From assembly GCA_002099625.1 (NCBI GenBank), contig GCA_002099625.1_4857.1: a stretch of DNA of 64,000 nt, one strand, 5' to 3'. The stretch is from Escherichia coli. GTDB taxonomy: Bacteria; Pseudomonadota; Gammaproteobacteria; Enterobacterales; Enterobacteriaceae. Numbering within the stretch: the first letter of the stretch is position 1; each line of letters starts with the position of its first letter. The translations under genes were made by a program, and so were the position numbers. The notes beneath the pieces are model-generated. The model searched no databases. It was not told the DNA's origin and saw only the letters and a program-made list of their open reading frames with translations. Positions 1,603 to 21,590 of this stretch are shown piece after piece.

Positions 1603-1604
1603 TT

Positions 1605-1674
1605 GCTTTGACCGGTCTCGAACCGGCGACTTTCCTCGAAGAGGCTGCTCTACCTACCTGAGCTACAAAGCCAT
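1605..1674 (-). tRNA. tRNA-like element with truncated anticodon arm
   Basis: Canonical 5' acceptor and D-arm (ggctttg-ta-gctc-aggtaggta-gagc) and T-arm (gccgg-ttcgaga-ccggt), but only about 19 nt between D- and T-arms; anticodon arm reduced to cctc-ttc-gagg hairpin. Confidence 0.3.
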
Positions 1675-2711: not shown

Positions 2712-2954
2712 TTAGCCAGCGTTGAACGATTCATGAACGACGGTCCCAGCAGGATAGTGCGTAGTACCGATAAGAGTAACGGTCAGGGTAAGCCCTTCAT
2801 CCCAGCGCTCTTTCGGTAACCAGCGGCAGTCCATCCAATGACCACAGTCGGGAGGAATTGCACACGCGGCTTGCTCCGTAGGAGCCGCCACGATTATGGA
2901 ATCAAATTCATCATACCCGATATCGTCAGTTCGTTCTAGCAAGTACAAATTCAT
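2712..2954 (-). CDS. Small hypothetical protein (80 aa, Cys/His-containing)
   Basis: ORF 2712..2966; GGAGAA ribosome-binding site precedes ATG at 2954 (MNLYLLERTDD); track start is a TTG. Confidence 0.4.
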   Translation of the reverse strand: MNLYLLERTDDIGYDEFDSIIVAAPTEQAACAIPPDCGHWMDCRWLPKERWDEGLTLTVTLIGTTHYPAGTVVHESFNAG

Positions 2955-3018
2955 GTTGTTCTCCAACAGTTGACAAATCTGTGTCTTCTGTGTTAAACCT
3001 GAATTCGTTGGCTAAAAG

Positions 3019-3094
3019 TGGCGGGGGCACGAGGTTTCGAACCTCGAACCTTCGGTTTTGGAGACCGGTGCGCTACCAATTGCGCCATACCCCC
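3019..3094 (-). tRNA. tRNA-Trp (anticodon CCA)
   Basis: Reverse complement gggggta-tg-gcgc-aattggta-gcgc-a-ccggt-ctCCAaa-accga-aggtt-cgagg-ttcgaaa-cctcg-tgccccc-g-cca; closely resembles E. coli tRNA-Trp; C27-A43 mismatch. Confidence 0.85.
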
Positions 3095-3188: not shown

Positions 3189-3680
3189 TCACCTCCGTAG
3201 TTCGTAAGTGCTAATCTCACCACCGGTATAGATATCGCATTCGGACGCAATCTCAACAGCACGAACCGCATTCGCGCCCATCTTCATCGCACCCAACGCG
3301 TACTCGTAACCGCTTCCGGTTGCCAGAGGTGGTGTGGCTTCACTCCACCACAACGACACGTCGTCTTCACGCTTCCCACCGACTATCGCTTTCCCTGAGG
3401 CCAGAAGCATCAGGAAAGTAAAATCCATCTTCGCAGGTAACTGCGAGCTTTGTGTTAACCCCTTGTAGCCGGGTCTCAAGCGGACCGTTTCCAGCAGGGC
3501 CAATTGTCCTGTGATGTCGCCGCTTACCCCGAACACCACAATTCGTTCACCGGTAATCCACCACTCCTCGTCGGGAGGACAGACGAATAACTTCTGGGTA
3601 TTCAGGTTGCAGATATTCGACCCACGGGTTAACTGGCCGTCAGCAGCTAAGACTTTTCCATCGAACGCTATCGTGGTCAT
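3189..3680 (-). CDS. HslV/proteasome beta-like N-terminal-nucleophile hydrolase
   Basis: N-terminus MTTIAFDGKVLAADGQLTRG matches the HslV/proteasome beta start (Thr1 nucleophile exposed after Met removal; TTI...VLAADGQ); GGAGAA ribosome-binding site before ATG at 3680. Confidence 0.6.
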   Translation of the reverse strand: MTTIAFDGKVLAADGQLTRGSNICNLNTQKLFVCPPDEEWWITGERIVVFGVSGDITGQLALLETVRLRPGYKGLTQSSQLPAKMDFTFLMLLASGKAIVGGKREDDVSLWWSEATPPLATGSGYEYALGAMKMGANAVRAVEIASECDIYTGGEISTYELRR

Positions 3681-4626
3681 GATTTAATTCTCCGTTTGGT
3701 TTATCATACCTCACGCAGAATCTGTAAATTTTAATCAGCCAGGTACCGTCGTTTCTCAACGGGAGTACCCACCCCTCTCGTCTGTTCCGAGCCGGCAAGA
3801 TATGGACCAACCTCCTCATCGGAGTTATCCCCCAAGTCTGCGGTTCTACACGCAGACCCCTTTTCGACGCAACGCCGAATTCGAATCAGTTTTGGCCCGA
3901 CGCCAGAGCGGAATCAGCGATAACTATCGGAGGTAAGTTCAACGACGTCTCTCCGCTGCCCAGTCCTCTGGCGCTGCCACGGTCAACTCGGATTTTGTCA
4001 TGGGTGCGCAGTCGACTTTCTCGACACTCTCGCAAACCGAACTACGCCCGACGTAGCACCGTCGGCAGGTCGGTTATTTACCGAGTACCTGAATGGGTGG
4101 TGATTGTCGGAATCCCCGCCGACGCTCACCGGTTCTGTTCCACGGCGAAAGTTTTCCAGAACATAATAAATCACGCAGTGTTAGATTGCGCTTTGTCGAA
4201 GACACCACGGTAGGTATTTTCGAAAAAGCGTCCTGGGTAACAATCCCAGGACTTGGAGCCCTAGCGTGCAGGGTTTAAAAGTGATTGGACCATTGGCGCG
4301 GTCAATCGCTATTCGCATATAACAACAAACTCACGTAATCAAAAAATTACCGGCTCGAGGCGTAGGCGTCCAGGAGCCGGTGAGTCACACAGCAGTGAGT
4401 CCCTCTGCGGGGATTTTCGTGGAGCTTGTCGTTGGAATAAAAATCCGTCCCCGGACGGGTTGGTGGTGTGGGTCGACTTGTCAGAGTCTGCCGTCCAGGG
4501 AGGCGGCCACCGAAGCTATGGGTTTTGGACATCGAGTGGTGGTCTGAACACACGATAGGGAAACCACGTAAAAAATACACAGGGTACCCAAACCAGGACG
4601 TCTGTCCGATCACGATCTCTTAATAA

Positions 4627-4797
4627 GGATCACGCGCGCGCCCGCACGCGTTTTAAGATCTTAATATATTAATATATTTATTTATATAAATAATTATAAT
4701 AATTAAATATAATACCTAAAGGTATTATTATATTTAATATTATTATATATTTTAAAAGATCCTGGAGGATACGGGTGTGCGCACGCGCACGCGTATA
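4627..4797. repeat. AT-rich imperfect palindrome (about 100 bp, >95% A+T) flanked by alternating CG/CA GC-rich blocks
   Basis: Left clamp cacgcgcgcgcccgcacgcg (4631-4650), AT tract 4651-4760 centred on aatacc-taaa-ggtatt (4711-4726), right clamp gtgtgcgcacgcgcacgcgt (4776-4795); GATC at both inner borders. Confidence 0.7.
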
Positions 4798-4888
4798 AGG
4801 AAAGGGTCTTCGACCCGATCCACAGGATCGATCTAAAAAACAATCTAAGTGATTGTTTTAAAAAGAAATTTTGAGAATTAGATTAAAT

Positions 4889-4911
4889 TATCCCCTAAGG
4901 GGGATTTTTAG
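4889..4911 (+). terminator. Terminator-like hairpin in non-coding region
   Basis: atcccc-taag-ggggat followed by ttttt; no annotated upstream plus-strand gene, so it may end a small RNA. Confidence 0.3.
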
Positions 4912-5394
4912 AGTGAGTTAACAACCCAAAGAACTCGTAAGTAACCGACAGTGTGTGTCGGTTACAGAACGATCCAGTTTTCACCCAGACATGGCACGAA
5001 GTGCTACCCAACGTGTGATCGTCGTCGCGGCCGGCGACCGTCGTCCCGGAACCGAAACGGGAATGGCTCTCTCGCGCTCTCAGCGGCCCGCTGGCGAGAT
5101 TTTCCGGTAGGGGGAACCCAAGTGTACTGGGTTGGGTATAAATCTCTTTCTAGCGCCTTCTAGAGCGTTTTTAATAACTGGTTAAAAAACATACAATCCT
5201 GAATCCCCATTCCCCGTATTTCCTCGCCCCGACAAAAATAAATTCTCTGTCTCGATACATAACCCCCTCTAAAACGCACGTAACCGACCCTAGAAAACGA
5301 TAAACTGCCAAAAACGAGCTACCCTACATCCAGACCACTTAATCGTTTTCTGACGTCTCCTAGACCCCCTTTAACCGGCCGGTTAAAAAAATAA

Positions 5395-5447
5395 TCAAAA
5401 AAAAAATAAAAAAAATAAGATTGGCGTACTCCCCGAAGAGAGTACGC
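5395..5447 (-). terminator. Rho-independent terminator
   Basis: Hairpin gcgtactc-cccgaaga-gagtacgc (5424-5447) followed on the minus strand by a long U-run (A-run 5390-5420); immediately downstream of CDS 5456..5965. Confidence 0.55.
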
Positions 5448-5455
5448 CTAGTGAC

Positions 5456-5965
5456 TTAACACTTGATGGTATAGCCATCAAGGCCAAGGTGTACTGGTTT
5501 TATCCATAACCCTGGCTCCCCGAAAATATTCAGGTCGTAAGTTTGGTAATGCATGATCTTTGCAGGAACATGCACACCCATGCGTTGCAGAAATTCCCAG
5601 ACGGCGACGTAACGTTCACGAGTGATGAACATTAATCCGGAGTCGAACCCGGAACCGATGTCTAGGAAATTACCAAGAGAACTGTCAAAACTTGACACAC
5701 CATCTTGAGTAAGTGCGACCAACCCTTTAGTTAAATCTCTGTGGTTGTCAATGAAGTTACAGAGATCTACGATGGTTATTTGACCGTAAATACGACGGAG
5801 GACGGCAGCAACAGCCAAAATCTCGCTGGTATTTCCGTAGTCACCTAAAGGGTTATGGTCCATCATCGCAGTAATTATGCTTGTGTCGCAGAGGTCGATT
5901 AACCGCTGGTCGTGTACCACCAGGTTAAGACCTTGCCCCACCTGCACGGTTGGCGCAGTAAACAT
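5456..5965 (-). CDS. Hypothetical protein (169 aa)
   Basis: ORF 5456..6010; AAGGAG ribosome-binding site precedes ATG at 5965 (MFTAPTVQ), removing the overlap with the upstream gene. Confidence 0.6.
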   Translation of the reverse strand: MFTAPTVQVGQGLNLVVHDQRLIDLCDTSIITAMMDHNPLGDYGNTSEILAVAAVLRRIYGQITIVDLCNFIDNHRDLTKGLVALTQDGVSSFDSSLGNFLDIGSGFDSGLMFITRERYVAVWEFLQRMGVHVPAKIMHYQTYDLNIFGEPGLWIKPVHLGLDGYTIKC

Positions 5966-5975
5966 AGGAGGCTCC

Positions 5976-7109
5976 TTACGTTTTGACTGACTGTGAAGGT
6001 ACTCTGGCATCGTACATTAAAAAGATTTCCAGCAGACTCATACCCGTCGCGTAAAAGATTTGGTCTGTAATGACACTCACCAACGCTTCTGGGTCAATCG
6101 CGTCTACTGCAAAATCACTGTCGAACTGCCAGAACTCGACGTCATCCCCCTTTTCAAATGTCGCGGCATACAATCCAGGTTTCACACCACGCCGGAACGA
6201 AAAGAGTTTTGCGTCAGACTCAGTGTCCTTACCATAGATTTCCCCGTCGGTCCGTGTGATCGCTGCGCGTTTACACCGAGTTACCGTAAGGAGCGCACGG
6301 TTTGCAGATGCTTGCGATTTAAACGGATAGGGGCCATCGTATGTCGGGACATTCTGGTCGCCTAAGGCATCAAGTGCCTTACTCCGATAGACTACCGGAG
6401 ACTTAAAATTACACAGTCGATTCCCTTCGGTAAACATTGTGTATTCGACCTTAACGTCGGTACCGACGAGGTCAGCAGGGGACACTTTGTAGTGTGCTAA
6501 CTGTCCCTGCACGCGGCGAGAAAGCATCGATGCCAGGAAGGTATGGTTGCCCTGTGTACGCAAGACATAACCGAACTCTGTGCAGTCGACGATACGAGCG
6601 TCCATACGTCGTACAGGCTCCAGCCGGTAAGTCACATCATTCGCTTCGATAAGAAACTGACTGATGCTAACATCGCGAGATCGATGTTTGATTGCTTCAA
6701 ACACTTCACCCGCTTCCAGAATAGCTGGTTCAATTACATTGACCTGGAATGGGAGGGGTTTCGTCGGCCGTTGACCCATTGTTGTCACTGTCATCGAACG
6801 TAGCCACGGATCGTCCTCGCTAGGGTCATTGGAAAGCCAATGTGTTAACCAGCGAGAAAGGTTCTGAGGAATCGTTGCGGTTGAATATAAAATCACGGTA
6901 CCCATTATGCCTGCATCGGCCAGCAAGCGCGCGAGTACCGTGTTCATCGAATCGTATTTGCCATTTCGAAGAATAGGTAATCCTCCGACCTGGACCATTT
7001 CGCAGATGACGCCGTGTGGCAACACCCACATCTTCACTTGTTGGGCAGAATGTATCTGCCCAGTGCGCAGCTTTTCTTGCCACGCGTGCTTACGTTCAAA
7101 GTTCATCAT
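5976..7109 (-). CDS. Hypothetical protein (377 aa)
   Basis: Long ORF, tandem ATG start, co-directional with neighbours. Confidence 0.65.
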   Translation of the reverse strand: MMNFERKHAWQEKLRTGQIHSAQQVKMWVLPHGVICEMVQVGGLPILRNGKYDSMNTVLARLLADAGIMGTVILYSTATIPQNLSRWLTHWLSNDPSEDDPWLRSMTVTTMGQRPTKPLPFQVNVIEPAILEAGEVFEAIKHRSRDVSISQFLIEANDVTYRLEPVRRMDARIVDCTEFGYVLRTQGNHTFLASMLSRRVQGQLAHYKVSPADLVGTDVKVEYTMFTEGNRLCNFKSPVVYRSKALDALGDQNVPTYDGPYPFKSQASANRALLTVTRCKRAAITRTDGEIYGKDTESDAKLFSFRRGVKPGLYAATFEKGDDVEFWQFDSDFAVDAIDPEALVSVITDQIFYATGMSLLEIFLMYDARVPSQSVKT

Positions 7110-7181
7110 TGGGTAAAATCTCCTTCAGGTATACTCTCAGTATGATAACATATATCCGTAAATTTTTAGAGGTTTAGTGCC

Positions 7182-8558
7182 ATGTCTGAACTGGTTTATG
7201 ATTTCAGTACCGGTTGTTATCGCGATACCGGAGTGAAGGTTGCCGTCGAATCATTCGGACGTGACCCATTCTTCGACGATGACACGTATTCTACGGGCTT
7301 GTACTACGACTATGGTTTTGGCGGCTACGTCCCGATGGGTTTGGTGGTTGCTGCAGAAGCCATGAAGAATGACCGATTACGTAAAGTGTTTGACGAATGC
7401 TTTAAACACGTCGTAATCGATCGTCGTTTTGCAAAGCAAATTCAACTTCACGTGGATAACATTCTTAAACGTGAAGGCAATGTGGAGTGGCTAGGGTCTA
7501 ACCTGCTAGGTGTCCACACTATCCGTTTTTACGATTCTGACCGTAACCGCTTTTTTGAAGATGTCTTGAAAGTGGATGAAGATTATCTGTTCGAGATGAT
7601 TAAAGAATCGGGTACGATTAACACCGACTGGGCAGTGGCTGGTGATCCGTATAACCTCTCTACGGTGTATACTCTACATCGAATGATGTCGAAATTCGCC
7701 GATCGTGAAATCCACGCCGCGGCTGTATCGTTAGTAACGCTTCTGCAATTCAAATTCTACTCCAGTATATATTACCACTTCTTCCCCAAGCCGGTCGACA
7801 TGGCCGCTGCCGACGCTGCGTATTCAATGCTGTCGTTAAAGTTCGATATTCGACGTTTAGGTAACTGGGGCTTGCACATGCAGGAGCGTTCAGAATACTT
7901 CTGTTCCCCAGAGTACCCAAACTACGATGCGGTTAAACGCTTCGATACGCCGGATTTGGTGCTGCGCTTCATCACCGACTTGAACACCCGTACCAAACAA
8001 ACCGTGAAGGACTATTACGCGGTACTGGACAAAGTACGTCGCGATAATAGCCGTGTGATTACGCAGTCAACTCGTATAGAGTTAGACGGCGAATCGATTA
8101 TTCGCGACAAAGTGGGTGCGCTGGATATCGCTAAGCAGAATCTGTTCGATGCGTCTTACGATATCAACAATCTTTACAAAGAGCAATTAGCAAAAGTGGT
8201 GTTGGAGCTAGTACCCAAAGCATCTCCCGCGGCACTGAAAACTTTGCTGGCGTATATTGCAAGTCTACCGCTTGGCAAAAAGCGTGATGAAATTAACGCT
8301 ATCATGGAGGACACGCTATCGCACGCGTTCGACGAAGTTGTTACCTCTCGTCTGAACTTTAACGACGCGAGTACGGTTCTGCTGCGTATGCGTTCGTTGT
8401 ATCAGGCCTCGAAGTCCCCCAACCCGTACGTGTTATCGTTACGTGAACGGATTGAGAAACTGGCTGCACGAGAAACACATATCCGTCATGAAGCCGCCTT
8501 GGCCGCTTTGCGTAATGCGTTGTTGTTGTACTTCTTGATCCGCTCTTTGCAGAAGTAA
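7182..8558 (+). CDS. Hypothetical protein (458 aa)
   Basis: Long ORF on the plus strand ending at a strong terminator. Confidence 0.7.
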   Translation: MSELVYDFSTGCYRDTGVKVAVESFGRDPFFDDDTYSTGLYYDYGFGGYVPMGLVVAAEAMKNDRLRKVFDECFKHVVIDRRFAKQIQLHVDNILKREGNVEWLGSNLLGVHTIRFYDSDRNRFFEDVLKVDEDYLFEMIKESGTINTDWAVAGDPYNLSTVYTLHRMMSKFADREIHAAAVSLVTLLQFKFYSSIYYHFFPKPVDMAAADAAYSMLSLKFDIRRLGNWGLHMQERSEYFCSPEYPNYDAVKRFDTPDLVLRFITDLNTRTKQTVKDYYAVLDKVRRDNSRVITQSTRIELDGESIIRDKVGALDIAKQNLFDASYDINNLYKEQLAKVVLELVPKASPAALKTLLAYIASLPLGKKRDEINAIMEDTLSHAFDEVVTSRLNFNDASTVLLRMRSLYQASKSPNPYVLSLRERIEKLAARETHIRHEAALAALRNALLLYFLIRSLQK

Positions 8559-8567
8559 AATAAAATG

Positions 8568-8609
8568 CCACCTCTCCAGTTTCGGAGAGGTGGCTACGTC
8601 GTATTTTTT
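8568..8609. terminator. Bidirectional rho-independent terminator
   Basis: Hairpin gccacctctcc-agtttc-ggagaggtggc (8568-8595) with T-run 8603-8609 on plus and A-run upstream; sits between convergent genes. Confidence 0.6.
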
Positions 8610-8624
8610 CGAGTTAAAGTTGAT

Positions 8625-8867
8625 TCAGGCGAGTGCTCCCGATACGGCAACTTGATGTAGGGTATACACAACGTGTAGCCCCGCGGTCGATAGTCCACCG
8701 ATAAGCAATACGCCAAAGCTACAGATAATCTGTCCGAGCCGCATTGTGCGTGTGCAGACATCGTGACTTTGTGCGTGTATGCGTATTACTTCGATGGTGT
8801 GGCGTAAGCCAAAGTATAGGCAAATCCACATTACCAGCACGATTGCGTAGTAGAGTTGAGTCATCAC
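8625..8867 (-). CDS. Small membrane protein (80 aa, two predicted TM helices)
   Basis: ORF overlaps terminase stop by 4 nt; hydrophobic stretches YYAIVLVMWICLYFGL and ICSFGVLLIGGLSTAGL. Confidence 0.45.
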   Translation of the reverse strand: MMTQLYYAIVLVMWICLYFGLRHTIEVIRIHAQSHDVCTRTMRLGQIICSFGVLLIGGLSTAGLHVVYTLHQVAVSGALA

Positions 8868-10975
8868 TTCATCCTCTGTCGTTGGATTAGCTCTTTCAAG
8901 CTTTCCATCGATGCGACGTTACGAACGTCAGTGTTGAGTTGAGAGACGAGCGCTTGAATACGATTCTTGTACATGAGCTGTTGTACCGGGTCGGCCACAA
9001 CTTGACTCTGTCTAATCATCGTTTCAATTTGCCCCATCAGTTGTTGTTGCTTTTCTTCTTCCTCGACTGCAGCCTCTTCATCGAATTCACCTGCCATGCC
9101 CCCGAGCATATTGCGGTTGCGCATCATCAGTCGGCTGTTACTTATACCGTAGTGGCCTAAGTTGTTGCCGAACAGAAGTAACCACATTGCCAGAAGCCAG
9201 GATATTACCAGGTCATCGTGACCGGATGCACGGTGGTCTATGCGCCCGTTTCGTTCGACGAGACCGAGGATTTGGTCGATCAATTCGCCTGACCGCAGTA
9301 AGTCCGCAGAAAGACGCAACGCCGTGGTAAATACTTCACCATACAACTTACGGCGTTTATCCTGGTCGGTTGAGAAACCGATGTATTTACGGAATTTGTC
9401 CCAGAAGCGCTCTGGACTGCCCACAGGGCCACGATGGAACTCTTTGTAAAGTTCATCGTTCCTTGAGTAATCCTGGGTCACTTTCACGTACAAACGACGA
9501 TGCAAATCGCGAACCTTAGATTGCAGCTGCAGTATGATGGCATCTGCTACCGAGGAGCCGGTAGACCGTCGTTCCAGAATGAGTACCGTGTTCGGATATT
9601 CGATCATGAAGTCTGCTAAGTGAATCGCAAACCCGATGACGTTTGTTTCGTTCACGGTGAGCTTGCCGGCATATTCGGCAGTGACAGAGTTGACGATTGA
9701 CATGGCAATGGCGTCCCGCCCCACGGCTTCGGAAGTATCCAAACCGATGATGTGGCGGTCTTGCATTTTAACCAGCATCTGTTCTTCAGTGTAATACCAA
9801 TCCGTTACGTAGTTGGAAGCAGAGATAATTTTCTGTGCTGCCCGAATACGCGAGGCGTTCATACGTCTTGCATCATCGCCTGAGAACGGTTTGTTGTAAC
9901 CACCGGTTGTCCATTCACCACCGAAGTCACGGCGGATTTGGTCTGGTGTACCTGGGGCGTTCGCAATCATATCTGCGAGTTCTTCGTCCGTAGTACCGAG
10001 CTGGCGGTGGTTGTATTTCACGTAGAACATGATACGTGGAATCTTCGCAGTAGAGCCTTTGCGAATCATGTCAATCAGTTGTGCACGAGTCGGAATGTCG
10101 ATATACCGTTCATCCCACGAAATCCCCGACGTCATCAGGCTGTACATGTACTCGCCTTCTTCTGTCGCCAAATCCCCAGGCGTTGTTGCGAAGACGTTGC
10201 CGTATGGAACACCTTCGGCTTCGTTAATACGACGCGCCGCGGTACCCGATGCTAGTGCAGCGGGGAGAATATGGTGGATGTTGTTGGTAAACGGTCCTTC
10301 ATCCGAGAACAGGCGTCCGGCTGTGAGTCCACGACCTACCCCGTTCGCAGCTTCCTTATCGTTTTGACCGATGCCGGTGATAAGTTTGTTGCCCTGCGCT
10401 AGACATGCAAATGTCTCACGGTTATCAGGATCGTCCGGGTGATGAGGCCAGAGGTAATCCGGTAACGCGTTACGCAGTTGCTTCATCTTGTTGATAGTTT
10501 CTTCACGCAGGGCAGGACCCTTCGTGATAAGAATCGTGCGTGAGTTCTCCAGGAAGCGCATCAGCCACAATAGCAATGCGGACATCCCGACAGTTTTACC
10601 ATGCTGACGGAGAAACTCGATAGCGGCGTCGATGTTGTTGAAGAAAATCCAGTACATCGAAAAGTTACCGCGGTCTAGACGAAACGGCATCCCGTTCTTT
10701 ACACCATCCGCAGGGACACGGACACATTCACGGAAGAAGTACCATGGGTTTTCCGCACACTCCGTAACAATCATCGCTTTTTGTTCGAGTGTTAAATCCG
10801 GACTGAACGGATCAACACCACGGAGTTCGGGATTGTGTAATGCCAGGTGGACGTACCAATGCTGGACACCTAATCCTTGTAGTGTTGTGGCGAATTGAAG
10901 GAAGTGCACGTTTGGTGTGACGTCGTCAACAATCGCCCCCGGATAGTGTCGCCAATCGTTTTTTCGCAGTATCAT
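8864..10975 (-). CDS. Terminase large subunit
   Basis: 703 aa; Walker A-like LRQHGKTVG, a pattern like T4 gp17 SRQLGKT; C-terminal nuclease-like IGLDTSEAVGRD and GHDDLVISW; GGAG ribosome-binding site before ATG at 10975. Confidence 0.8.
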   Translation of the reverse strand: MILRKNDWRHYPGAIVDDVTPNVHFLQFATTLQGLGVQHWYVHLALHNPELRGVDPFSPDLTLEQKAMIVTECAENPWYFFRECVRVPADGVKNGMPFRLDRGNFSMYWIFFNNIDAAIEFLRQHGKTVGMSALLLWLMRFLENSRTILITKGPALREETINKMKQLRNALPDYLWPHHPDDPDNRETFACLAQGNKLITGIGQNDKEAANGVGRGLTAGRLFSDEGPFTNNIHHILPAALASGTAARRINEAEGVPYGNVFATTPGDLATEEGEYMYSLMTSGISWDERYIDIPTRAQLIDMIRKGSTAKIPRIMFYVKYNHRQLGTTDEELADMIANAPGTPDQIRRDFGGEWTTGGYNKPFSGDDARRMNASRIRAAQKIISASNYVTDWYYTEEQMLVKMQDRHIIGLDTSEAVGRDAIAMSIVNSVTAEYAGKLTVNETNVIGFAIHLADFMIEYPNTVLILERRSTGSSVADAIILQLQSKVRDLHRRLYVKVTQDYSRNDELYKEFHRGPVGSPERFWDKFRKYIGFSTDQDKRRKLYGEVFTTALRLSADLLRSGELIDQILGLVERNGRIDHRASGHDDLVISWLLAMWLLLFGNNLGHYGISNSRLMMRNRNMLGGMAGEFDEEAAVEEEEKQQQLMGQIETMIRQSQVVADPVQQLMYKNRIQALVSQLNTDVRNVASMESLKELIQRQRMK

Positions 10976-12665: not shown

Positions 12666-15179
12666 TTAACCCTTGATTATCAGATACTGATTAAGCTGCA
12701 CTTCGCCATTCAGATAACGTTCATTGACGCGGTCTAAGAAGGCAAAGCCAAGTTCGTTGATTTCTACCGTTTCGTACTTCACATGCGGATGCAGTTTCAC
12801 AAACGCTTTATCGTAACCGATATAAGCCGGGTCAAACGGCAGGAGGTCTTTATAACGCTCCATGATGTTATCCAGCTGCGACGTCGAAATACGATACTCT
12901 GGATCGTCTTCCCGTAGAATCAGAATACCTTGTAAGTAGTCCCACAAGATTTTGTTCAGGGTTGGCGAGTAGAGATGATACAGATACGGCAACGGTACCG
13001 GGTTAACCGGCGGTGGTGTTGGGAACCAGTTAGACAAATAAGCCTCAACGCGTGTGTCCAAATCGCGGGCAGTGTCGCGCAACTTGTAAGTATCGCCGCT
13101 TACCAACGTCCGTAACGGAATAGTCGGATCGTCGACTGAGTACGGGAACCCGTCTTGTACGATATCGACACCTACAGTGTTGTCTTCACGGAACACGACT
13201 TCGTCACGCAGTAACAGTGAACCACCACCCACAACGCGAATTACTTTGTCATCACGACAATCAAACTGATTGTTGTTAGACAGCAGTCCGCTTGACACGA
13301 AACCGTGTTTAGGAATACGGAGTTCACCGGTCACACCACGACAACGCACTGAGATTTTGTTGGTATCCCCGTCCGCCATCCAAGCTTTGCACACCACCAC
13401 GATTTCCGGCCAGCGGGTATGATAGTCAATCCCATGAACCAGCGGGTGGTTGTTCAACCACACTTCGACCGTTTCCATTGGTAACCACAGCGTGCGCTGC
13501 TGCCCGTCTTGGTTGCGTGCTACAATCGGAATACGTATCTGACCTTCCGATACTTTAACCTCCACTTCGAAGAACAAATGGAGGTCGTCGTAAATCACGG
13601 TCGGGTGACGTCGTGTCCGATCTACGGTCCAGGTGATTTTGTTTCCGTCGCGTGTGTAATCCGTTCCTTCCTCGGCTTTGTAGTAATCGTTGGTCGGAAC
13701 TTCCCCGATGACCATTCGAATCCACAGTCCAACGTTCGAACCTGGCTCAATTTCAAAGTCGGGAGCGTTGTCAACAATCTTCACCGCATCTGAGACTTCA
13801 CCTGCAATTGCCTCAATGATTCGTGCTTCCGGATTGCGAGGGATGTAAACATCGTAGCCTGCATTACGGTGATGCTCTAACAGCAACCCATCGGCATCGT
13901 ATTCGTATACAGTCGACAATGTTGCCAGTAGGTCAGGCAAAATACCACGATAACCGCCAGAGGTAAGTTCCAGACGCTGCGGTGTGTCGGCGCTGTAACG
14001 TGCAGCAGCGTTGTAGCCGTACGCATCAGTGCAAAGATCGCGCGTGATGTTCCGGAGTTTGGCCGCCGCTAACCGATTCGCTGCCGATTCTTCGAGCGCT
14101 GCTGCGGTCCACTCTGGTACGTTGGAGTTTGCCCCCACCATCGCACCGATGATTTGCTCGTCGCTAAGACGATAGAGATCATGCGTGTGGGTGGAATTAT
14201 ACAGCGGCTTCAGGTCAAGGAAATCGTCGCGTATCAATAAACGAATCGTTAGTTCGTCGATATCATTCATCGGGGTGTTGAACGCGGTGCGGTACTTCGA
14301 AATCCGCATCGAAGGAATCGATAGATCGTTCCACGTCAATTGTCGTACGGCCAGATGGCGGTGGCGATGGTAGTAACGTCCCTCGCCTTTCCACAACAAC
14401 TGAATTTCACAATCGCTGTTGAAAATCCAAATGCCATCCCCTTTTGGAATGTGCAGCAGGTATTTTCGTGTTTGGTCAAGCGTTGAGTAGAACGTTTGCA
14501 AATCCCCACAACGGTATTCAATCACACGACGAATACGCCCATCGACACGGATTTCAACATCGTCCCACGCTTTGATATCCGCGGGCTTAGGATCAGCAAT
14601 CATCTTTCCGTTTACCCAGAAATCGACATAGCCGATTTTCTGGCCTTTCAACAGATTATAACGGTCTAAGACGATCTGGATCTGTTGTGGGTTCGGCGGA
14701 TTATACGGTTCGATGAACGTCGGTTTAACAACAGGAGCGTTTTCGCCGCCATCATTACCAGCATAAATGCGCAGATAACACGGCGTGTCGTCTAACCACT
14801 TGTAGCGTTCCGTTTGCGGAATCGCCATGTAAATCTGACCAGAGAGTGTCCGCCAGAAATACACAGAGTTCGACGGGATAATTGTCCCATCTTCGTTGTA
14901 CACCTGCATCCACGCATGGAAGTTATTTACACACGTAGTAAGTTTCTTCCAGCGCTCAGGAGGGATACTCAAGTTGCCGTAGTTGAGGTGGAGCTTGTCA
15001 ATTACAAACGCGTGCCACCACCCCTCGCCCGGTAAAGGAATCGGATTACGCCCGTGCTTGAAAAACCCGATCGCTCCGGTCTTTTCAGTTAATCGAAAAG
15101 GCGCAATGTTCAACACCCCATCGAGGTACGGACGCTGCCACGCATTTTTAACGGCGTGAGCGACCAGCCAGTTCTCCAT
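12666..15179 (-). CDS. Hypothetical large protein, possibly virion structural (837 aa)
   Basis: Long ORF; AAGAGG ribosome-binding site before ATG at 15179. Confidence 0.65.
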   Translation of the reverse strand: MENWLVAHAVKNAWQRPYLDGVLNIAPFRLTEKTGAIGFFKHGRNPIPLPGEGWWHAFVIDKLHLNYGNLSIPPERWKKLTTCVNNFHAWMQVYNEDGTIIPSNSVYFWRTLSGQIYMAIPQTERYKWLDDTPCYLRIYAGNDGGENAPVVKPTFIEPYNPPNPQQIQIVLDRYNLLKGQKIGYVDFWVNGKMIADPKPADIKAWDDVEIRVDGRIRRVIEYRCGDLQTFYSTLDQTRKYLLHIPKGDGIWIFNSDCEIQLLWKGEGRYYHRHRHLAVRQLTWNDLSIPSMRISKYRTAFNTPMNDIDELTIRLLIRDDFLDLKPLYNSTHTHDLYRLSDEQIIGAMVGANSNVPEWTAAALEESAANRLAAAKLRNITRDLCTDAYGYNAAARYSADTPQRLELTSGGYRGILPDLLATLSTVYEYDADGLLLEHHRNAGYDVYIPRNPEARIIEAIAGEVSDAVKIVDNAPDFEIEPGSNVGLWIRMVIGEVPTNDYYKAEEGTDYTRDGNKITWTVDRTRRHPTVIYDDLHLFFEVEVKVSEGQIRIPIVARNQDGQQRTLWLPMETVEVWLNNHPLVHGIDYHTRWPEIVVVCKAWMADGDTNKISVRCRGVTGELRIPKHGFVSSGLLSNNNQFDCRDDKVIRVVGGGSLLLRDEVVFREDNTVGVDIVQDGFPYSVDDPTIPLRTLVSGDTYKLRDTARDLDTRVEAYLSNWFPTPPPVNPVPLPYLYHLYSPTLNKILWDYLQGILILREDDPEYRISTSQLDNIMERYKDLLPFDPAYIGYDKAFVKLHPHVKYETVEINELGFAFLDRVNERYLNGEVQLNQYLIIKG

Positions 15180-15189
15180 AGTGGGCCTC

Positions 15190-16095
15190 TTACTTGATGT
15201 TCAGTGGTTTGGTGTTTTGATTCAACAGAAGGTTGTAAGTGAATTCAAACTTATCGCGTTTCTTAGCGGTGTCTGACTTCTTCACAATCCCACCTAACCG
15301 ACTGCGGTTAAACATGTTATTATCCAGACAAGCCTTAATCATAACGAAGAGACTAGGCGGATATTCGATGGCGCTGGTAGCGAGTTGTTTTTCATAACTC
15401 ACCCCGAAGAAGCTGGTATTCAACATCTGCTGCAGAGACAGAATGCTCAGGTCACGCACCCGCGGAGTGATATCTGCAGCCTGCACCATTTCGACGAATT
15501 CTGCGATATTACGCGGGAAAAGATATTCTGTGTGGCCTGTCACTGATTCAAACAGTTCCGCAGGTAAGCCTAATTGTTGCTCCAGCATCTGCTGCAAACG
15601 TAAAGCTTTCACATCATCTTCGACGTGATTATAGAACTGTCCCACAGAGAACAATGCAGCCAACGCTTTGATTTGCCCACTTTGATATGGAGCAAGTGCA
15701 AACGTGTGGGTAATCGCATCCGACACCCATTTGCTGAAAATCTCATGGTGGTAGGGCATCTGTGCCATCAGTGCAGCAAGCTTACCATTACTCCGTTTCC
15801 ACACCAATTCCCAGCGAGCCTGGTCGAGACGCAATGCGTGTTCGACTGGGTTTCGTATTTTTAGCTCGTTGGTCTTATCCAGCGTGGTAAACGTGGCTGC
15901 GTATACATAAACGTCGTCGCCGATAACAATCGGCAAAGGAAACGGTTTTACATCAGCGGTCTCAACAACGTAATGAACTTCATCGGACTGTGAGACAGTT
16001 TGGTTAAGTTTACGGGCTAATTCCAGGTCTGCCTTGGTGCGAGTAAGGTCAAGTGCATTAAAGGGATTACCGCTGTAAGCGTTTTCGAGTGCCAT
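15190..16095 (-). CDS. Hypothetical protein (301 aa from MALENAYSG)
   Basis: ORF 15190..16257; AAGGA ribosome-binding site precedes ATG at 16095; the longer form would overlap the divergent gene start at 16153. Confidence 0.55.
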   Translation of the reverse strand: MALENAYSGNPFNALDLTRTKADLELARKLNQTVSQSDEVHYVVETADVKPFPLPIVIGDDVYVYAATFTTLDKTNELKIRNPVEHALRLDQARWELVWKRSNGKLAALMAQMPYHHEIFSKWVSDAITHTFALAPYQSGQIKALAALFSVGQFYNHVEDDVKALRLQQMLEQQLGLPAELFESVTGHTEYLFPRNIAEFVEMVQAADITPRVRDLSILSLQQMLNTSFFGVSYEKQLATSAIEYPPSLFVMIKACLDNNMFNRSRLGGIVKKSDTAKKRDKFEFTYNLLLNQNTKPLNIK

Positions 16096-16152
16096 GAGTA
16101 TGATCCTTAGTATGACCATCAGGTCTTTAAGACGAATATATGGAGACGTTCC

Positions 16153-18198
16153 ATGACTTTTATTCCACGAAACGGCGCGCCGTTGAATAACAAGCAAGGT
16201 TGGCAGGATAACTCTGTCCCCGAGCTTGTGCGTACCCCTACGGGTGACGCAATTCATAAGCCGCTGATCTTCACCTTTGCCGCGCGCGGGGTAGACAACG
16301 AGGCGTTCCCGTTAACCGGGGATAATGCACTGTCTCTGCTTGGTCGCAATGTCTTTGACTTGCGAGGCCCCTACGCGACGTTCAACACGCCCTATCAGGC
16401 GATGTTCAACGCTAACGCAAACGAGTGTATGTATCAGCGCTTGATCCCTGAAGATGCGAAAACCGCAAGTGTTCGCGTATTCGCCGACGTACTCGAAACG
16501 AAAGTTCCGTCCTACGAACGCGACAGCAACGGGATCGTTCAGTACGACAACTCGGGCAAGCCCAAGATCAAAGAACAAGTTGACGGTTTGGTAATCGTCT
16601 TCCGTTCTGTCGTAATCGACGAAACTACCCCGGCCATCGGCGCAGGTGTGGTTATCGAGGGGACGATGACTGGCGAAGGCGGCACGAAATCGAAGCTGTA
16701 TCCGTTGTTCGATATCGCAGGCCCGTATGCGGGTGCTGACGTCAACGGTTTCGGTTTCAAACTGATCCCACTCAGCGAGAAATCCAGCCCGGCTCTGACC
16801 TCCTCCTATCAAAATGAAGTCGGTGGTCGTGTTTACACCCTGCAATGGTTCGAAACCCTGGCAGGCGTGACTTCTCCGGTAGTGTGGAAAACTCTCACTG
16901 GCATGAGTAGCATCAATTTTAGCTTTAAGCCCGATGCATACTATCAGCCGATGAGAACGCAACTCGACTTCGAAGTTGTTGTTGCGGATGCATATCGTCA
17001 GACGATGCCTGACATTGGCGAGCTGCCAGATTATGGTCCTTTCGAGCAGTTCTATCTGTATCGCGAGAACCTGGAAACTGTACTGGGCTTGGCTCAGGCC
17101 GCTATCACAACTGATGCGCCTGCTGACCCGTATATGGTTGACATCTTTGGCGGCTATGATTTACTGGGCCAGCCTTACGATGGTCTTCAGGTAAACCCGG
17201 CTACTGAAACCGGTAAAGTTGTGTTCTCCGCATCCAACATCCACTACCTGCAAGGTGGTAGCGATGGTACCATGAACAACGACGTTTACGACGAACTCGT
17301 TCGCCGTGAAATGCTGCTGTTCCCGGATGGCGGTAAAGTCCGTTACGACAACGAGCTGAAATACTCGCTGGGTTGTTTCTGGGACTCTGGCTTTAGCTTC
17401 GATACTAAAGCTGCGCTCGTGAACTTCATCGGTCGTTCACGTAACACCTTCTTGACGCTGGCGACTCACGTTCACAACCAAGGTCGTAACGATGAGCAGA
17501 CAGAAGAAAGTGCAAAAATCGCCCTGATCGAATTGATCACTGCGGTACCGGAATCTGCCTATTACGGTACTCCGGCTGCACGTGGTATGGTCACTGGCCA
17601 ATCGGCGTTCATCAAGAACTCTTCCTACAAGAAGCCTGTTCCGATGAACTATTCCCTGGCGAACTTCTTCTCGAAGTACCTGGGTGCTGCTGAAGGTCGT
17701 GCAAAACCGGCTTATCGTTTCAGCCGTGGCGAACTGACGATTATCGAAGATCTGACTGACCTGAGTATGCCGTGGAAAGGCAACGAAGTGTATGCATCTG
17801 ACTGGGATGTGTCGCTGATCACTGCCCGTTCCTACGACTACTATCGCTTGTTCATTCCGGCGATTCAGTCAATCTACAGCGAAGATCGTTCTGTACTGAA
17901 CAACGCCCTGTTCAACTTCATGATGACCTACGTCTATCGTGTTTCCGACCGTGTATGGGCGGACATGTCTGGCGAAGCGGCCATGACGGATGATGAACGT
18001 GCGAAGATGATTGAGAACAAAATTATCGAACGTCTGGAAGGCCGTCTCGATAACGTTGCTGTTGTCACTCCGAAGGCGTACTTCACTGCAGACGATAAAT
18101 CCAATGGTTACTCTGTGACGCTGGACCTGATCGCTGAAGGCGGTGTGCTGCTCACCCAGTTCAACACCACTATCAAAGTTTACCGTCGGGAGAGCTAA
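16153..18198 (+). CDS. Putative tail sheath protein (681 aa)
   Basis: Codon usage typical of highly expressed genes; size and gene order (followed after 3 nt by a 291-aa gene, then a strong terminator) fit a sheath-tube pair; functional call is inference only. Confidence 0.4.
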   Translation: MTFIPRNGAPLNNKQGWQDNSVPELVRTPTGDAIHKPLIFTFAARGVDNEAFPLTGDNALSLLGRNVFDLRGPYATFNTPYQAMFNANANECMYQRLIPEDAKTASVRVFADVLETKVPSYERDSNGIVQYDNSGKPKIKEQVDGLVIVFRSVVIDETTPAIGAGVVIEGTMTGEGGTKSKLYPLFDIAGPYAGADVNGFGFKLIPLSEKSSPALTSSYQNEVGGRVYTLQWFETLAGVTSPVVWKTLTGMSSINFSFKPDAYYQPMRTQLDFEVVVADAYRQTMPDIGELPDYGPFEQFYLYRENLETVLGLAQAAITTDAPADPYMVDIFGGYDLLGQPYDGLQVNPATETGKVVFSASNIHYLQGGSDGTMNNDVYDELVRREMLLFPDGGKVRYDNELKYSLGCFWDSGFSFDTKAALVNFIGRSRNTFLTLATHVHNQGRNDEQTEESAKIALIELITAVPESAYYGTPAARGMVTGQSAFIKNSSYKKPVPMNYSLANFFSKYLGAAEGRAKPAYRFSRGELTIIEDLTDLSMPWKGNEVYASDWDVSLITARSYDYYRLFIPAIQSIYSEDRSVLNNALFNFMMTYVYRVSDRVWADMSGEAAMTDDERAKMIENKIIERLEGRLDNVAVVTPKAYFTADDKSNGYSVTLDLIAEGGVLLTQFNTTIKVYRRES

Positions 18199-18201
18199 TA
18201 G

Positions 18202-19077
18202 ATGGCAATCAAAGATCGTCTCATTTTGCCTGATCAGGGTCTGCACGTCGACGGCGGCCAGTACGATATGGTCAACGCGTTCTCCTCGGGCCAAAACGGC
18301 CCGGTTGGACAGGTTGGCAAGTTCGTTACTAACGCCTCTCGTCTGCGTCGTAACGTCATTGCGCGTGTCATGGAATTCCCTCGTTGGGTGGATTACATGC
18401 CGAACCCGCAAATGTGGCGTCAGGCTATCAAGTCCTTTATCGAGGTTCACTCCGAGATTACTGGTCTGGATAAAACCCTGAGCCATGCGGCAGTTGAAAC
18501 TCAACAGGGCCGTAACAACCGCACCCAGTATGAAGCTGGTCTGGTAACGGAAGCACTGTCCTCTGTTACCTTCACCACCCCGGATAAACTCGGGAAGGTG
18601 TACCAGAACATGCTGTGGGCGTGGCTGGTTTACGGTGTTTGCGATCCCCAGACTGGTCACCCAGGCCTGGCCGCAATCAACCCGAACGTTCCTGACCACC
18701 TGCCGGATATGTACAGCATGACCGTGCTGTTCATCGAACCGGATGCATATCAGCGTAAACCGCAGAATGCGTGGTGGTTAACGAACATGATTCCGGAAAC
18801 CGCCGGCCAGGATATCGGTGAGCGTGAAACCAACACCGGTCCGCAGATTAACGAACTGTCAATCGCCTTTACCTCCCAGCAATGGACAGGTTGGGGTCCG
18901 ATGCAGGCTGCTGCGAAAGAGCTGGAGCGTATGAAGCTGTACGGTCTGCGTCCTTACGAGCGCAAACTGTGGCTTACTCCGTCTCAGCAGACCGATGGTA
19001 TCAACCCGGACGTCAACGCAACCCCAGGTGGCTACAACTCTGTCTCCGACGAGCAGATGGCCAACCAGATGCGCTAA
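18202..19077 (+). CDS. Putative tail tube protein (291 aa)
   Basis: Immediately follows the putative sheath gene; highly expressed codon usage; GGGAGAG ribosome-binding site. Confidence 0.35.
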   Translation: MAIKDRLILPDQGLHVDGGQYDMVNAFSSGQNGPVGQVGKFVTNASRLRRNVIARVMEFPRWVDYMPNPQMWRQAIKSFIEVHSEITGLDKTLSHAAVETQQGRNNRTQYEAGLVTEALSSVTFTTPDKLGKVYQNMLWAWLVYGVCDPQTGHPGLAAINPNVPDHLPDMYSMTVLFIEPDAYQRKPQNAWWLTNMIPETAGQDIGERETNTGPQINELSIAFTSQQWTGWGPMQAAAKELERMKLYGLRPYERKLWLTPSQQTDGINPDVNATPGGYNSVSDEQMANQMR

Positions 19078-19094
19078 GACAAAAAAACAAGCGT

Positions 19095-19133
19095 TACCTC
19101 TCTCCATTTGGAGAGAGGTACGTTTTATTTTTT
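19095..19133. terminator. Bidirectional rho-independent terminator
   Basis: Hairpin tacctctctcca-ttt-ggagagaggta followed by T-run 19123-19133 on plus; A-run 19081-19087 serves the convergent minus-strand gene. Confidence 0.6.
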
Positions 19134-19667
19134 CGGTTGGCCAGCATCAATTTCACGCTGCGCATTGGCACGAATCAGCAAGTTCTTGATTTGCAGCAAT
19201 AACAGATAGGTTACGAGCACATCGAATTCAGACGGTGGTTGAACATCACCCAAGTCAGGGTGGGCAATCTTCCAGAGAGACATCCCGTCTTTATAACCTT
19301 GCCCTGATTCTGCCGCGAGAATGTCGTTGGCGGACATGCTAATGAGTTCGTGTTCCAGCCGACGGAGTACATCGTCACCCAATTCTACCTGCAACAGACA
19401 TTTAAAGCGAATGATAAAACCCGCGATAATACGACCGCTACTACCTTTGGTGATCGTGTCGAGAAAACGTTGGTAGCCGTTGATGGTGTGCGGGATGATT
19501 TCAACCGGATATTCGGCAATGGTTTCGAAAGCATCTTCCAGTATAGCTTTCATGGACAACGTAAACACGTCACCGATCTGATTGATGTGGCGAATAATGT
19601 CTTCACGTTTCATATCAGATGGAATCGGTTTGATATCATCCTGACCGAGAGTATTAAGTTGCTTCAT
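19125..19667 (-). CDS. Hypothetical protein (180 aa from MKQLNTLGQ)
   Basis: ORF 19125..19748; GGAG ribosome-binding site before ATG at 19667. Confidence 0.55.
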   Translation of the reverse strand: MKQLNTLGQDDIKPIPSDMKREDIIRHINQIGDVFTLSMKAILEDAFETIAEYPVEIIPHTINGYQRFLDTITKGSSGRIIAGFIIRFKCLLQVELGDDVLRRLEHELISMSANDILAAESGQGYKDGMSLWKIAHPDLGDVQPPSEFDVLVTYLLLLQIKNLLIRANAQREIDAGQPKK

Positions 19668-19722
19668 TGTAGCTCCAAAATCAAAAAAAAATAGGGCAGT
19701 CATAAGACCACCCCATTGTTTA

Positions 19723-19926
19723 CTACTTCCGACCGTATAGCGAAGCAAGCCCTTCTAACTGCAGCGGCTTCGGCATAGGTTTAGGGAAGGTGACGGTGAG
19801 ACCGATTTCCTCGTGTGACGCAATGGTGCCATCCCAACGTAACCCAGTAGCAGGATTCACATTAGGATGACATTCCACTTTAGCCCCGAGTAGCTCAGCG
19901 AGTTCCTTTGGGCTGGACGGAATCAT
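19723..19926 (-). CDS. Small hypothetical protein (67 aa)
   Basis: ORF in co-directional block; start unverified. Confidence 0.35.
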   Translation of the reverse strand: MIPSSPKELAELLGAKVECHPNVNPATGLRWDGTIASHEEIGLTVTFPKPMPKPLQLEGLASLYGRK

Positions 19927-20414
19927 TATTCGTCGTCTTCGTCTTCTTCATCGGTTGCCATCATGGACTTGGCAAACTCTTTACGCAGCTTGCCTTCCAA
20001 CGCTTTAGACTTTGGAGAACCGAAACCGTAAGAGATGGACGCTGCCCATTCTTTCTGAGTTGGGTTTTCAGTAACCGGGCGAGAGAACACGGTAGAGAAT
20101 GCTGCGTTACCGATATCCAGCGTTAAGTCCAGTGCACCGATATCGCTATCCGCTTTCGCACGGTCAGCAATCAGACCACCGGCAACGCCACCGAACAGTT
20201 CAGTGAAGTTTGCGTCGTGCTGTCGCAGAGCGTCCGCGTCTTCCAGTGTGAAGCGATAGTCCACATCCCCAACTTTCGTTACGGGGAGTGTTTCTTCGTA
20301 AATCTTAACCAGCGGGTCGGCGTTCAGCGCCAGGTCTTCGGACAGGGTTGCTGCCGGCGTGTCCAGTTCAGCGATCAGTTTGTGCAGTGCTTTCATTGAA
20401 GTTACTTCAGCCAT
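19926..20414 (-). CDS. Hypothetical acidic protein (162 aa, C-terminal DEEDEDDE)
   Basis: AAGGAA ribosome-binding site before ATG at 20414; strongly acidic tail. Confidence 0.6.
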   Translation of the reverse strand: MAEVTSMKALHKLIAELDTPAATLSEDLALNADPLVKIYEETLPVTKVGDVDYRFTLEDADALRQHDANFTELFGGVAGGLIADRAKADSDIGALDLTLDIGNAAFSTVFSRPVTENPTQKEWAASISYGFGSPKSKALEGKLRKEFAKSMMATDEEDEDDE

Positions 20415-20440
20415 CTTAATATTCCTTAAGGTCAGTGTGA

Positions 20441-21112
20441 TTAATCGTGTGAAAGACGAGCTTCGAGGTCGTCGATAATGGTATCTGTGAAATAGCTAAT
20501 ATCTAGCTGCTCCACGAAATCCCTGCGTTCCAGAATGCGCTCTGCGAAGAGCGTACCGTACCAACTAGGGACATTACTAACACCGTTGCGTCCGAACTTC
20601 TGTTGGACGTGACCAACGGCATGGAATTTTGCATCGCCTTTACTTTTACCCTGTTCACGGGCAAACAGATAAGAACGGTGCATGTAATTGCTCACGTCAT
20701 CTACAGACGGTATACCACGGTCAGCTGCGGCAACTATCTCAGAGACAATCCCGTTGTAGTTCCCTTTGTGAGAACTGCGGTGTTCTAAGACTGCATGGGC
20801 AATCGTCAAACATTCATCATCGGTAAGTTTATACTTACGTTTGAGCACTGGCTTGTTATCCAGTATCCAGCTATACCCTTTGATGTGGTGCGACGCACGG
20901 TCTTCTTTGGTAGAGAAGATATCGTGAGCTGCCACCGCAATCAGTATCAGCTTCAGGTGTTCGGTTTGCCCAAGCATATACGCGATACGAATCGCATTTG
21001 ATTTAACTGAGTTGATGTGATCCATGCGATGCGCACTATCGGTATAACGATAGAAGTCGCGGAATTGACGAACCAGTTTTTCCCAAAGTTTGTTGAGTTC
21101 AGTGCCCTGCAT
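20441..21112 (-). CDS. HD-domain phosphohydrolase
   Basis: Motifs RMDHINSV ... LILIAVAAHDI ... HH match the H...HD metal-binding signature of HD phosphohydrolases. Confidence 0.6.
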   Translation of the reverse strand: MQGTELNKLWEKLVRQFRDFYRYTDSAHRMDHINSVKSNAIRIAYMLGQTEHLKLILIAVAAHDIFSTKEDRASHHIKGYSWILDNKPVLKRKYKLTDDECLTIAHAVLEHRSSHKGNYNGIVSEIVAAADRGIPSVDDVSNYMHRSYLFAREQGKSKGDAKFHAVGHVQQKFGRNGVSNVPSWYGTLFAERILERRDFVEQLDISYFTDTIIDDLEARLSHD

Positions 21113-21129
21113 GTAAATATTCCTTACGA

Positions 21130-21143
21130 TAATGGTCGATTAA
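21130..21143 (-). promoter_or_regulatory. Leader motif TTAATCGACCATTA, copy 1 (18 nt upstream of the HD gene start)
   Basis: Minus-strand leader ttaatcgaccattatcgtaaggaatatttac-ATG nearly identical to the leader at 22009-22022. Confidence 0.4.
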
Positions 21144-21146
21144 CTA

Positions 21147-21536: not shown

Positions 21537-21590
21537 TTTATTCCTTCCTACACAGTCAAAGGATTTGTACGATTCGTGATTTTTGAGAGA

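Follow-up and report, generated by a model that had tools for sequence, protein, structure and literature searches.

The locus and its phage genome

The window analysed here, a stretch of 64,000 nucleotides, belongs to a SPN3US-like Salmonella jumbo phage (Seoulvirus; 98-99.5% identity by megablast). On its minus strand, running from position 3680 to 3189, lies an ORF of 163 amino acids that begins with MTTIAFDGKVLAADGQ, the same residues as those quoted in an earlier, sequence-only reading of this DNA. The ORF is a real gene, and translation of the opposite (plus) strand over 3189-3680 is riddled with stops. An in-frame stop lies two codons 5' of the ATG and the protein therefore cannot carry a propeptide; it starts directly with Met-Thr-Thr. 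The encoded peptidase is 100% identical in SPN3US, SEGD1, MET_P1_082_240 and Lh1B, and in the RefSeq record NC_027402 the gene is ACQ60_gp001, named 'peptidase HslV family'. Its neighbours in the window all fall into PHROGs without known function, and the tRNA-Trp gene beside it is context only. Furthermore, a search of all six-frame ORFs of the window with the family profile (hmmsearch) found no second PPH or HslV copy. The features of the locus are collected in Table 1.

Table 1. Coordinates, in the window, of the peptidase gene, its predicted functional residues and adjacent features
Feature	Position	Strand	Basis or remark
CDS, PPH-type proteasome/HslV-like Ntn peptidase, 163 aa	3189..3680	-	SPN3US gp001 / YP_009153295.1
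Shine-Dalgarno GGAG, 9 nt 5' of ATG	3690..3693	-	direct sequence reading
Thr2 codon, predicted N-terminal nucleophile after Met1 removal	3675..3677	-	aligns with HslV Thr1
Asp14 codon, equivalent to Asp17 of HslV/proteasome	3639..3641	-	alignments
Lys30 codon, equivalent to Lys33	3591..3593	-	invariant in 135/135 aligned members
G51-V-S-G54	3519..3530	-	G51 equivalent to oxyanion-hole Gly (HslV G45 / proteasome G47); G54 family-invariant
Residues 68-92, loop of about 20 residues plus start of the next strand, in place of HslV helix H2/pore segment	3405..3479	-	pLDDT 76-80
G122-S123-G124, equivalent to HslV/proteasome Gly-Ser-Gly (Ser129) motif	3309..3317	-	alignments
D149-I-Y-T152-G153-G154	3219..3236	-	equivalent to proteasome β 'D166..S169-G-G' motif (β5 alignment)
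tRNA-Trp (CCA)	3019..3094	-	ARAGORN; Rfam 65.6 bits; 94 nt 3' of the peptidase gene, same strand

Fold and active site

Taken as a single sequence, the window peptidase scores 13.2 bits against the Pfam Proteasome family (PF00227), below the gathering threshold of 22.4. This low score reflects divergence and not missing homology, because a profile of the family matches the proteasome β5 subunit with E=2.6e-13. That value comes from a PDB search with a 51-sequence alignment (the window protein, 49 matches and one near-identical copy); the same search found Thermotoga maritima HslV at E=6.8e-12, so that the profile fits β5 at least as well as HslV. The peptidase also matches PHROG 1040, 'peptidase HslV family', with E=2.9e-38, and 57 homologs, most of them 140-170 residues long, were found among 5.8 billion proteins.

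Twelve positions are invariant in the 51-sequence alignment: M1, T2, T3, A5, A12, D14, K30, G54, G122, G124, A128 and A141. In a broader set of 135 cluster representatives drawn from an exhaustive HMMER scan, the invariant positions are K30, G54, G122 and G124, and at T2, D14, D149, G153 and G154 at least 90% of members agree. The position of the oxyanion-hole glycine is a Gly in the window peptidase and varies elsewhere in the family, being occupied by Gly, Ala and other residues. When the family was aligned by hhalign with E. coli HslV (a probe identical to PDB 5ji3_A at 175 of 176 residues), T2, D14, K30, G51 and the GSG at 122-124 were paired with T1, D17, K33, G45 and the GSG of HslV.

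An AlphaFold2 model of the window peptidase (pLDDT 92.5, pTM 0.88) contains the predicted four-layer α-β-β-α Ntn fold of the proteasome/HslV-type hydrolases (MEROPS T1), and a Foldseek search with this model placed Haemophilus influenzae HslV first (TMq 0.72), followed by β5 and BPH. The sequence-only reading had recognized an HslV/proteasome β signature with a Thr1 nucleophile and had proposed structure prediction and alignment as the check. Both agree with it: the predicted fold is the right one, and equivalents of Thr1, Asp17, Lys33 and Gly-Ser-Gly can all be aligned. The conserved catalytic residues argue for catalysis over a decoy role, and judged from them the window peptidase is probably active. 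Catalysis need not mean degradation, and the Ntn scaffold might instead serve another acyl transfer, for example as a connectase-like transpeptidase or ligase, or as an amidase acting on a small molecule or modified protein. We give little credence to such a non-degradative function.

Assignment to the PPH family

Fuchs et al. (2021) described PPH as a family of free-standing phage proteasome homologs (PMC8665760). Its members have about 140 residues, occur in Caudovirales phages and prophages, and have neither a propeptide nor the C-terminal elements S12/H5; their hallmark is the lack of helix H2, a trait otherwise found only in RPC, which carries a C-terminal extension (PMC8665760). The same authors found neither an informative gene context nor a co-occurring AAA+ partner for PPH, noted that all known PPH hosts are Proteobacteria with an HslU of their own, and cautioned that the loss of H2 may preclude a classical double ring (PMC8665760).

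The window peptidase has this architecture in its model. Strands 45-54 and 87-93 are separated by a single helix (56-66) and by a loop (residues 67-86); where HslV has about 30 residues that make up H2 and the pore segment, the window peptidase has this loop of about 20. Consistent with this, hhalign opens a gap of about 20 residues opposite H2 of E. coli HslV. The last element of the model is the strand 157-160, and no C-terminal S12/H5 follows. In the HMMER scan, the best family matches are proteins of 138-160 residues that are aligned from residue 1. From the predicted structural hallmark, together with the phage distribution, we assign the window protein to PPH, a compact relative of HslV, BPH and the proteasome β subunits.

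The window peptidase and the PPH of the 2021 survey are alike in being compact and single-domain, in having no propeptide, in keeping the Thr, Asp and Lys residues and in lacking H2 and S12/H5. Both occur in tailed phages of Proteobacteria or in prophages, and neither has a linked AAA+ gene. They differ in length, however, with 163 residues in the window peptidase against about 140. About 16 of the additional residues are inserted behind Lys30 (PPDEEWWITGERIV) and modelled as an extra β-hairpin, and others belong to the longer loop that replaces H2; both features are common to other jumbo-phage members. A second difference is that no co-occurrence with an HslU-like AAA+ protein was reported in the 2021 survey, whereas part of the lineage of the window peptidase has such a protein.

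Sequence scores indicate that the window peptidase is not HslV proper, and to this extent the sequence-only reading was overstated. Against the NCBIfam HslV equivalogs TIGR03692 and NF003964 it reaches 16.5 bits (cutoff 157.75) and 16.3 bits (cutoff 137), respectively, and H2 is missing. HslV (ClpQ), the peptidase of the bacterial ATP-dependent protease HslUV, is a dodecamer built from two hexameric rings and has helices H1-H4. Neither its H2 with the pore segment nor its pocket residues for the HslU tail are kept here. Moreover, HslV is normally accompanied by hslU, whereas the window peptidase has no adjacent hslU and SPN3US has none at all. BPH, the β-proteobacterial homolog (PDB 5ovs and 5ovu), is a cellular protein with four helices and a long acidic pore loop that forms heptameric double rings; the window peptidase, known here from a single-chain prediction, is phage-borne and lacks H2 and the pore segment. 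Finally, compared with β5 and β5i of the 20S proteasome, it is shorter by about 40 residues and is without H2, S12/H5, a propeptide and an α-ring partner.

Possible docking on host HslU

Since every known PPH host encodes HslU (PMC8665760), there is room for a reading in which rings of the phage peptidase are hijackers of the host HslU hexamer, either forming a hybrid ATP-dependent protease whose cleavage is set by the phage or competing with the host HslV. In the bacterial complex, the C-terminal tails of HslU bind pockets between HslV subunits that are lined by F54, F57, Q114 and the H2 residues A79 and K80 (PMC6429459). In the window peptidase, L60 and L63 stand at the places of F54 and F57, A79 and K80 lie in the deleted segment, and the region of Q114 cannot be aligned. 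Canonical docking on HslU is predicted to be unlikely because H2 is deleted and the pocket residues F54, F57 and Q114 are not conserved, and an adapted interface is possible. The score far below the HslV equivalog cutoff and the fit of the family profile to β5 also speak against a hijack of host HslU, which we regard as unlikely.

An HslU-like ATPase in related phages

No HslU- or ClpX-like gene was detected in the 64-kb window, where the best tblastn match has E=0.8 (the HslU probe was E. coli HslU, identical to 1g4a_E). Nor does the SPN3US genome contain one, where a 13-codon scar remains. The gene is present in relatives. In SPLA3, an HslU-like AAA+ gene lies at 115433-117193 (L004:4001-5761), about 100 kb from the PPH gene of that phage, and in MET_P1_082_240 the corresponding gene is annotated hslU. 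Its product, a protein of 586 residues assigned to PHROG 4339, has a giant I-domain of about 300 residues and retains Walker A (GPTGTGKT), the GYVG pore loop, Walker B, the Arg finger and sensor 2. The best NCBIfam match is hslU, with 208.6 bits and thus under the cutoff of 362.

A full-length copy is found in three of the 23 PPH-bearing Seoulvirus records (SPLA3, phage 1252 and MET_P1_082_240), with PPH proteins that are 97.5-100% identical. The gene is also present in SPAsTU, in pSal-SNUABM-04 and in many Erwinia jumbo phages, some 15 of which also carry PPH, and altogether PPH and the HslU-like ATPase occur together in about 20 jumbo-phage genomes. The sequence-only reading had called the peptidase an orphan. 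For the window and SPN3US this is correct, but for the lineage it is not, given that the HslU-like gene is found in SPLA3, phage 1252 and MET_P1_082_240 as well as in many jumbo phages of Erwinia. In SPN3US, at about 103090-103140 (L006), the gene has been cleanly deleted between GCGCT(A/G)TT repeats, leaving its first 13 codons; in Lh1B and JN03 a different deletion has left a stub of about 70 codons. By the evidence of the SPN3US scar, the HslU-like gene was ancestral in Seoulvirus.

These co-occurrences suggest another reading, namely that PPH and the ATPase are the two halves of a split phage HslUV and that phages of the SPN3US type are recent degenerates. The ATPase has the AAA+ motifs listed above and is found together with PPH in SPLA3, 1252, MET_P1_082_240, SPAsTU, pSal-SNUABM-04 and the Erwinia phages, its gene was ancestral in the genus, and no canonical HslV was found in genuine phage records that could serve the ATPase instead (the tblastn matches were confined to records resembling bacterial contaminants). 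However, the ATPase has been lost at least twice while PPH has stayed under purifying selection, and MET_P1_082_240, which has the HslU-like gene, and SPN3US, which does not, encode PPH proteins that are 100% identical. The two genes are unlinked. The converse also occurs, with the ATPase but no PPH detectable by tblastn in the RAY/Ea35-70, Kwan/Wellington and CR5/Phobos groups; among Erwinia records, 46 have the ATPase as against 22-24 with PPH. The C-termini of the ATPases are short and variable and lack [F/Y]-[I/L]-[I/L]-COOH, the tail motif that activates HslV (PMC4106860, PMC6429459), and the protein of Machina has no tail at all. In phage RAY, the ortholog gp116 is located in the phage nucleus together with DNA enzymes. 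Furthermore, hundreds of small phages have PPH and no ATPase: PPH is carried by phages of 40-90 kb (Jerseyvirus, Xp10, Jedunavirus and PAK_P1-like), and no HslU-like match at E<=1e-8 was found in Klebsiella, Xanthomonas, Proteus or Pseudomonas phage records or in Salmonella phages of 40-90 kb. We therefore consider a split phage HslUV very unlikely. Because PPH is kept, and even identical, without the ATPase, because there are ATPase groups without PPH and because the ATPase tails lack the HslV-activating motif, PPH does not appear to depend on a phage ATPase. In genomes with both genes, a facultative partnership is possible.

Several observations on individual relatives may be added. Special G, of the RAY group, encodes a divergent proteasome-fold protein of about 182 residues (BFVD A0A191ZBV1; Foldseek E=1.3e-5, 15% identity) and so, going by this structural match, phages of the RAY group may still hold some HslV-like protein. 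RAY gp117 and gp118, of 179 residues each and encoded beside the HslU-like gp116, were considered for this and showed no similarity. In SPLA3, a protein of 160 residues is encoded directly 3' of the HslU-like gene (L004:5842-6324); it corresponds to SPN3US ACQ60_gp149, annotated 'head maturation protease', belongs to phrog_7478 and has a weak Pfam S80 match (E=0.038). Possibly it is a shortened paralog of the S80 prohead protease; as a hidden HslV-like partner it was rejected (hhalign probability 0.2%). Finally, according to its published description, pSal-SNUABM-04 has HslV-like proteins encoded by two ORFs (1 and 116) but lacks HslU. In its record MT710307.1, the protein encoded at 106144-107871 carries the annotation 'putative DnaA protein' and shares 49% identity with the HslU-like ATPase of SPLA3. 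If this is ORF 116, then pSal-SNUABM-04 has an HslU-like gene and the published statement would be an annotation error.

Distribution and selection

Homologs of the window peptidase are present in 490 phage records (tblastn), of which 284 are from phages of Salmonella, 48 of Pseudomonas, 29 of Escherichia, 25 of Klebsiella, 24 of Erwinia and 21 of Vibrio; the remainder come from other hosts, and phages of Rhizobium, Aeromonas and Xanthomonas are also represented. The phages range from 40-kb siphoviruses (Jerseyvirus, Xp10) through the 49-kb Jedunavirus and 88-kb PAK_P1-like phages to jumbo phages, including EL. A single chromosomal homolog, P0052, was found in Salmonella enterica. At metagenome scale, the HMMER scan gave 986 clusters (50% identity) at E<=1e-30 and 10,269 at E<=1e-10, and BFVD contains 40 viral fold relatives at E<=1e-3.

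Within Seoulvirus, PPH is intact in all 23 records, with or without the HslU-like ATPase. Among six alleles, dN/dS is 0.016-0.18, and the most diverged pairs have up to 24 synonymous changes against four or five non-synonymous ones. These values indicate strong purifying selection on the PPH gene in this genus. The gene contexts in SS3e, Xp10, IME346 and EL have no partner gene in common, and in Xp10 and SS3e PPH is found among small early or accessory genes, away from the head modules. EL (14159-21644, L011) and the window (3189-10975) share one gene order, in which TerL and PPH are separated by three genes of unknown function, and in EL the tubulin gene PhuZ is next after PPH. This suggests that PPH was already at a TerL-proximal position in the common ancestor of the nucleus-forming jumbo phages related to EL and SPN3US.

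Head maturation and defence

A prohead-protease-like role had been put forward for the peptidase from the sequence, and its place about 5 kb from the large terminase gene, a position kept in EL, would fit a prohead or virion maturation protease. However, this role is already filled in the window. An S80 prohead protease is encoded on the minus strand at 23727-24530 (Pfam Peptidase_S80, E=1e-84) and is the ortholog of SPN3US gp245, the essential head-maturation protease, which explains every mapped cleavage of head proteins at the AXE motif (PMC10052503). Both are phage-encoded peptidases of the same genome, but the S80 protease (phiKZ gp175 / SPN3US gp245) is unrelated to PPH in fold and catalytic type, works in virion assembly and has AXE specificity; the ORF at 3189-3680 has no S80 match in Pfam. 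In addition, gp1 is mentioned neither in the SPN3US essential-gene study, which included virion proteomics, nor in the 2023 virion mass-spectrometry study. In small phages, PPH is unlinked to the head genes, being grouped with early or accessory genes. A role in prohead or virion maturation is thus extremely improbable.

The PADLOC defence-system models did not match PPH. A paper on the anti-Dnd protein JSS1_004 was considered as a source of a functional homolog, and as it mentions only the expression of host hslV it is irrelevant here.

Proposed mode of action and significance

The best explanation as a whole, and one that we hold to be probable, is that PPH is a free-standing threonine peptidase that acts during infection with no obligatory phage unfoldase. 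The host methionine aminopeptidase would remove Met1 and so expose the Thr nucleophile, as in E. coli HslV, and PPH would assemble as a ring or another oligomer. It would then work as a cytoplasmic, non-virion threonine peptidase in the infected cell, with no obligatory dedicated phage unfoldase, a mode of action also proposed for BPH and for the 20S proteasome in its uncapped form. Peptides, or unstructured or destabilised proteins of the host or the phage, would be the likely substrates of PPH. A literature search found no biochemical, localisation, expression or functional study of any PPH member.

A more specific reading starts from an ancestral two-part machine similar to HslUV, from which phages of the SPN3US type dropped the unfoldase; PPH would then remove specific host proteins, such as defence or stress-response factors, either with host HslU or independently of ATP. 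We consider this quite unlikely. If it were true, PPH would be the first viral homolog of the proteasome with a defined function and, given the 490 phage records in which it occurs, a widespread tool for counter-defence or takeover by proteolysis.

The sequence-only reading had considered roles that it called non-standard for the family. The observation itself is not new: the gene is annotated in RefSeq, the PPH family was described in 2021 (PMC8665760), and databases and literature already record both the gene and its standing as an 'orphan'. What is new here is the presence/absence polymorphism of the HslU-like ATPase in Seoulvirus, with its deletion scar, and the case made from structure against docking on HslU in the canonical way. 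Within the proteasome family, PPH has been described as the first truly viral member, and it is widespread, with about 1,000 clusters in addition to the phage records. SPN3US is a genetically tractable jumbo phage from which amber mutants have been isolated, and its relatives with and without the HslU-like ATPase are a ready-made natural comparison. The locus described here is therefore a reasonable entry point to how phages use a miniature proteasome subunit.

Other features around the gene

Besides tRNA-Trp, the window contains a tRNA-Asn gene at 1446-1518 and two weaker tRNA-like elements that adjoin it, at 1529-1600 and 1603-1672 (both on the minus strand), so that the cluster spans 1446-1672. 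The two elements score 31.9 and 35.7 bits in Rfam, above the gathering threshold, and were not called by ARAGORN; the RefSeq annotation of SPN3US places one 'tRNA-OTHER' in the same region. The two elements may be phage tRNAs of a degenerate or unusual type.

The 1.77 kb directly 5' of the peptidase gene (3681-5455) has annotated genes in no relative. It contains 11 terminator-like hairpins, mainly on the minus strand, as against 2.6 expected from shuffled sequences, and a search of this stretch against Rfam gave no match. The SPN3US record has its arbitrary first position within this stretch, at about window position 4866.

In SPLA1a (L015:2395-2970), SPFM4 and phage 1252, an extra ORF of 191 codons precedes the peptidase gene, and a 4-nt overlap between its stop and the ATG of the peptidase suggests that the two are translationally coupled. 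This ORF is missing from the window, from SPN3US and from SPLA3. Its product matches no Pfam, PHROG or peptidase family and is weakly similar (E=0.046) to the product of an 84-codon ORF at window positions 2712-2966, which belongs to phrog_5444.
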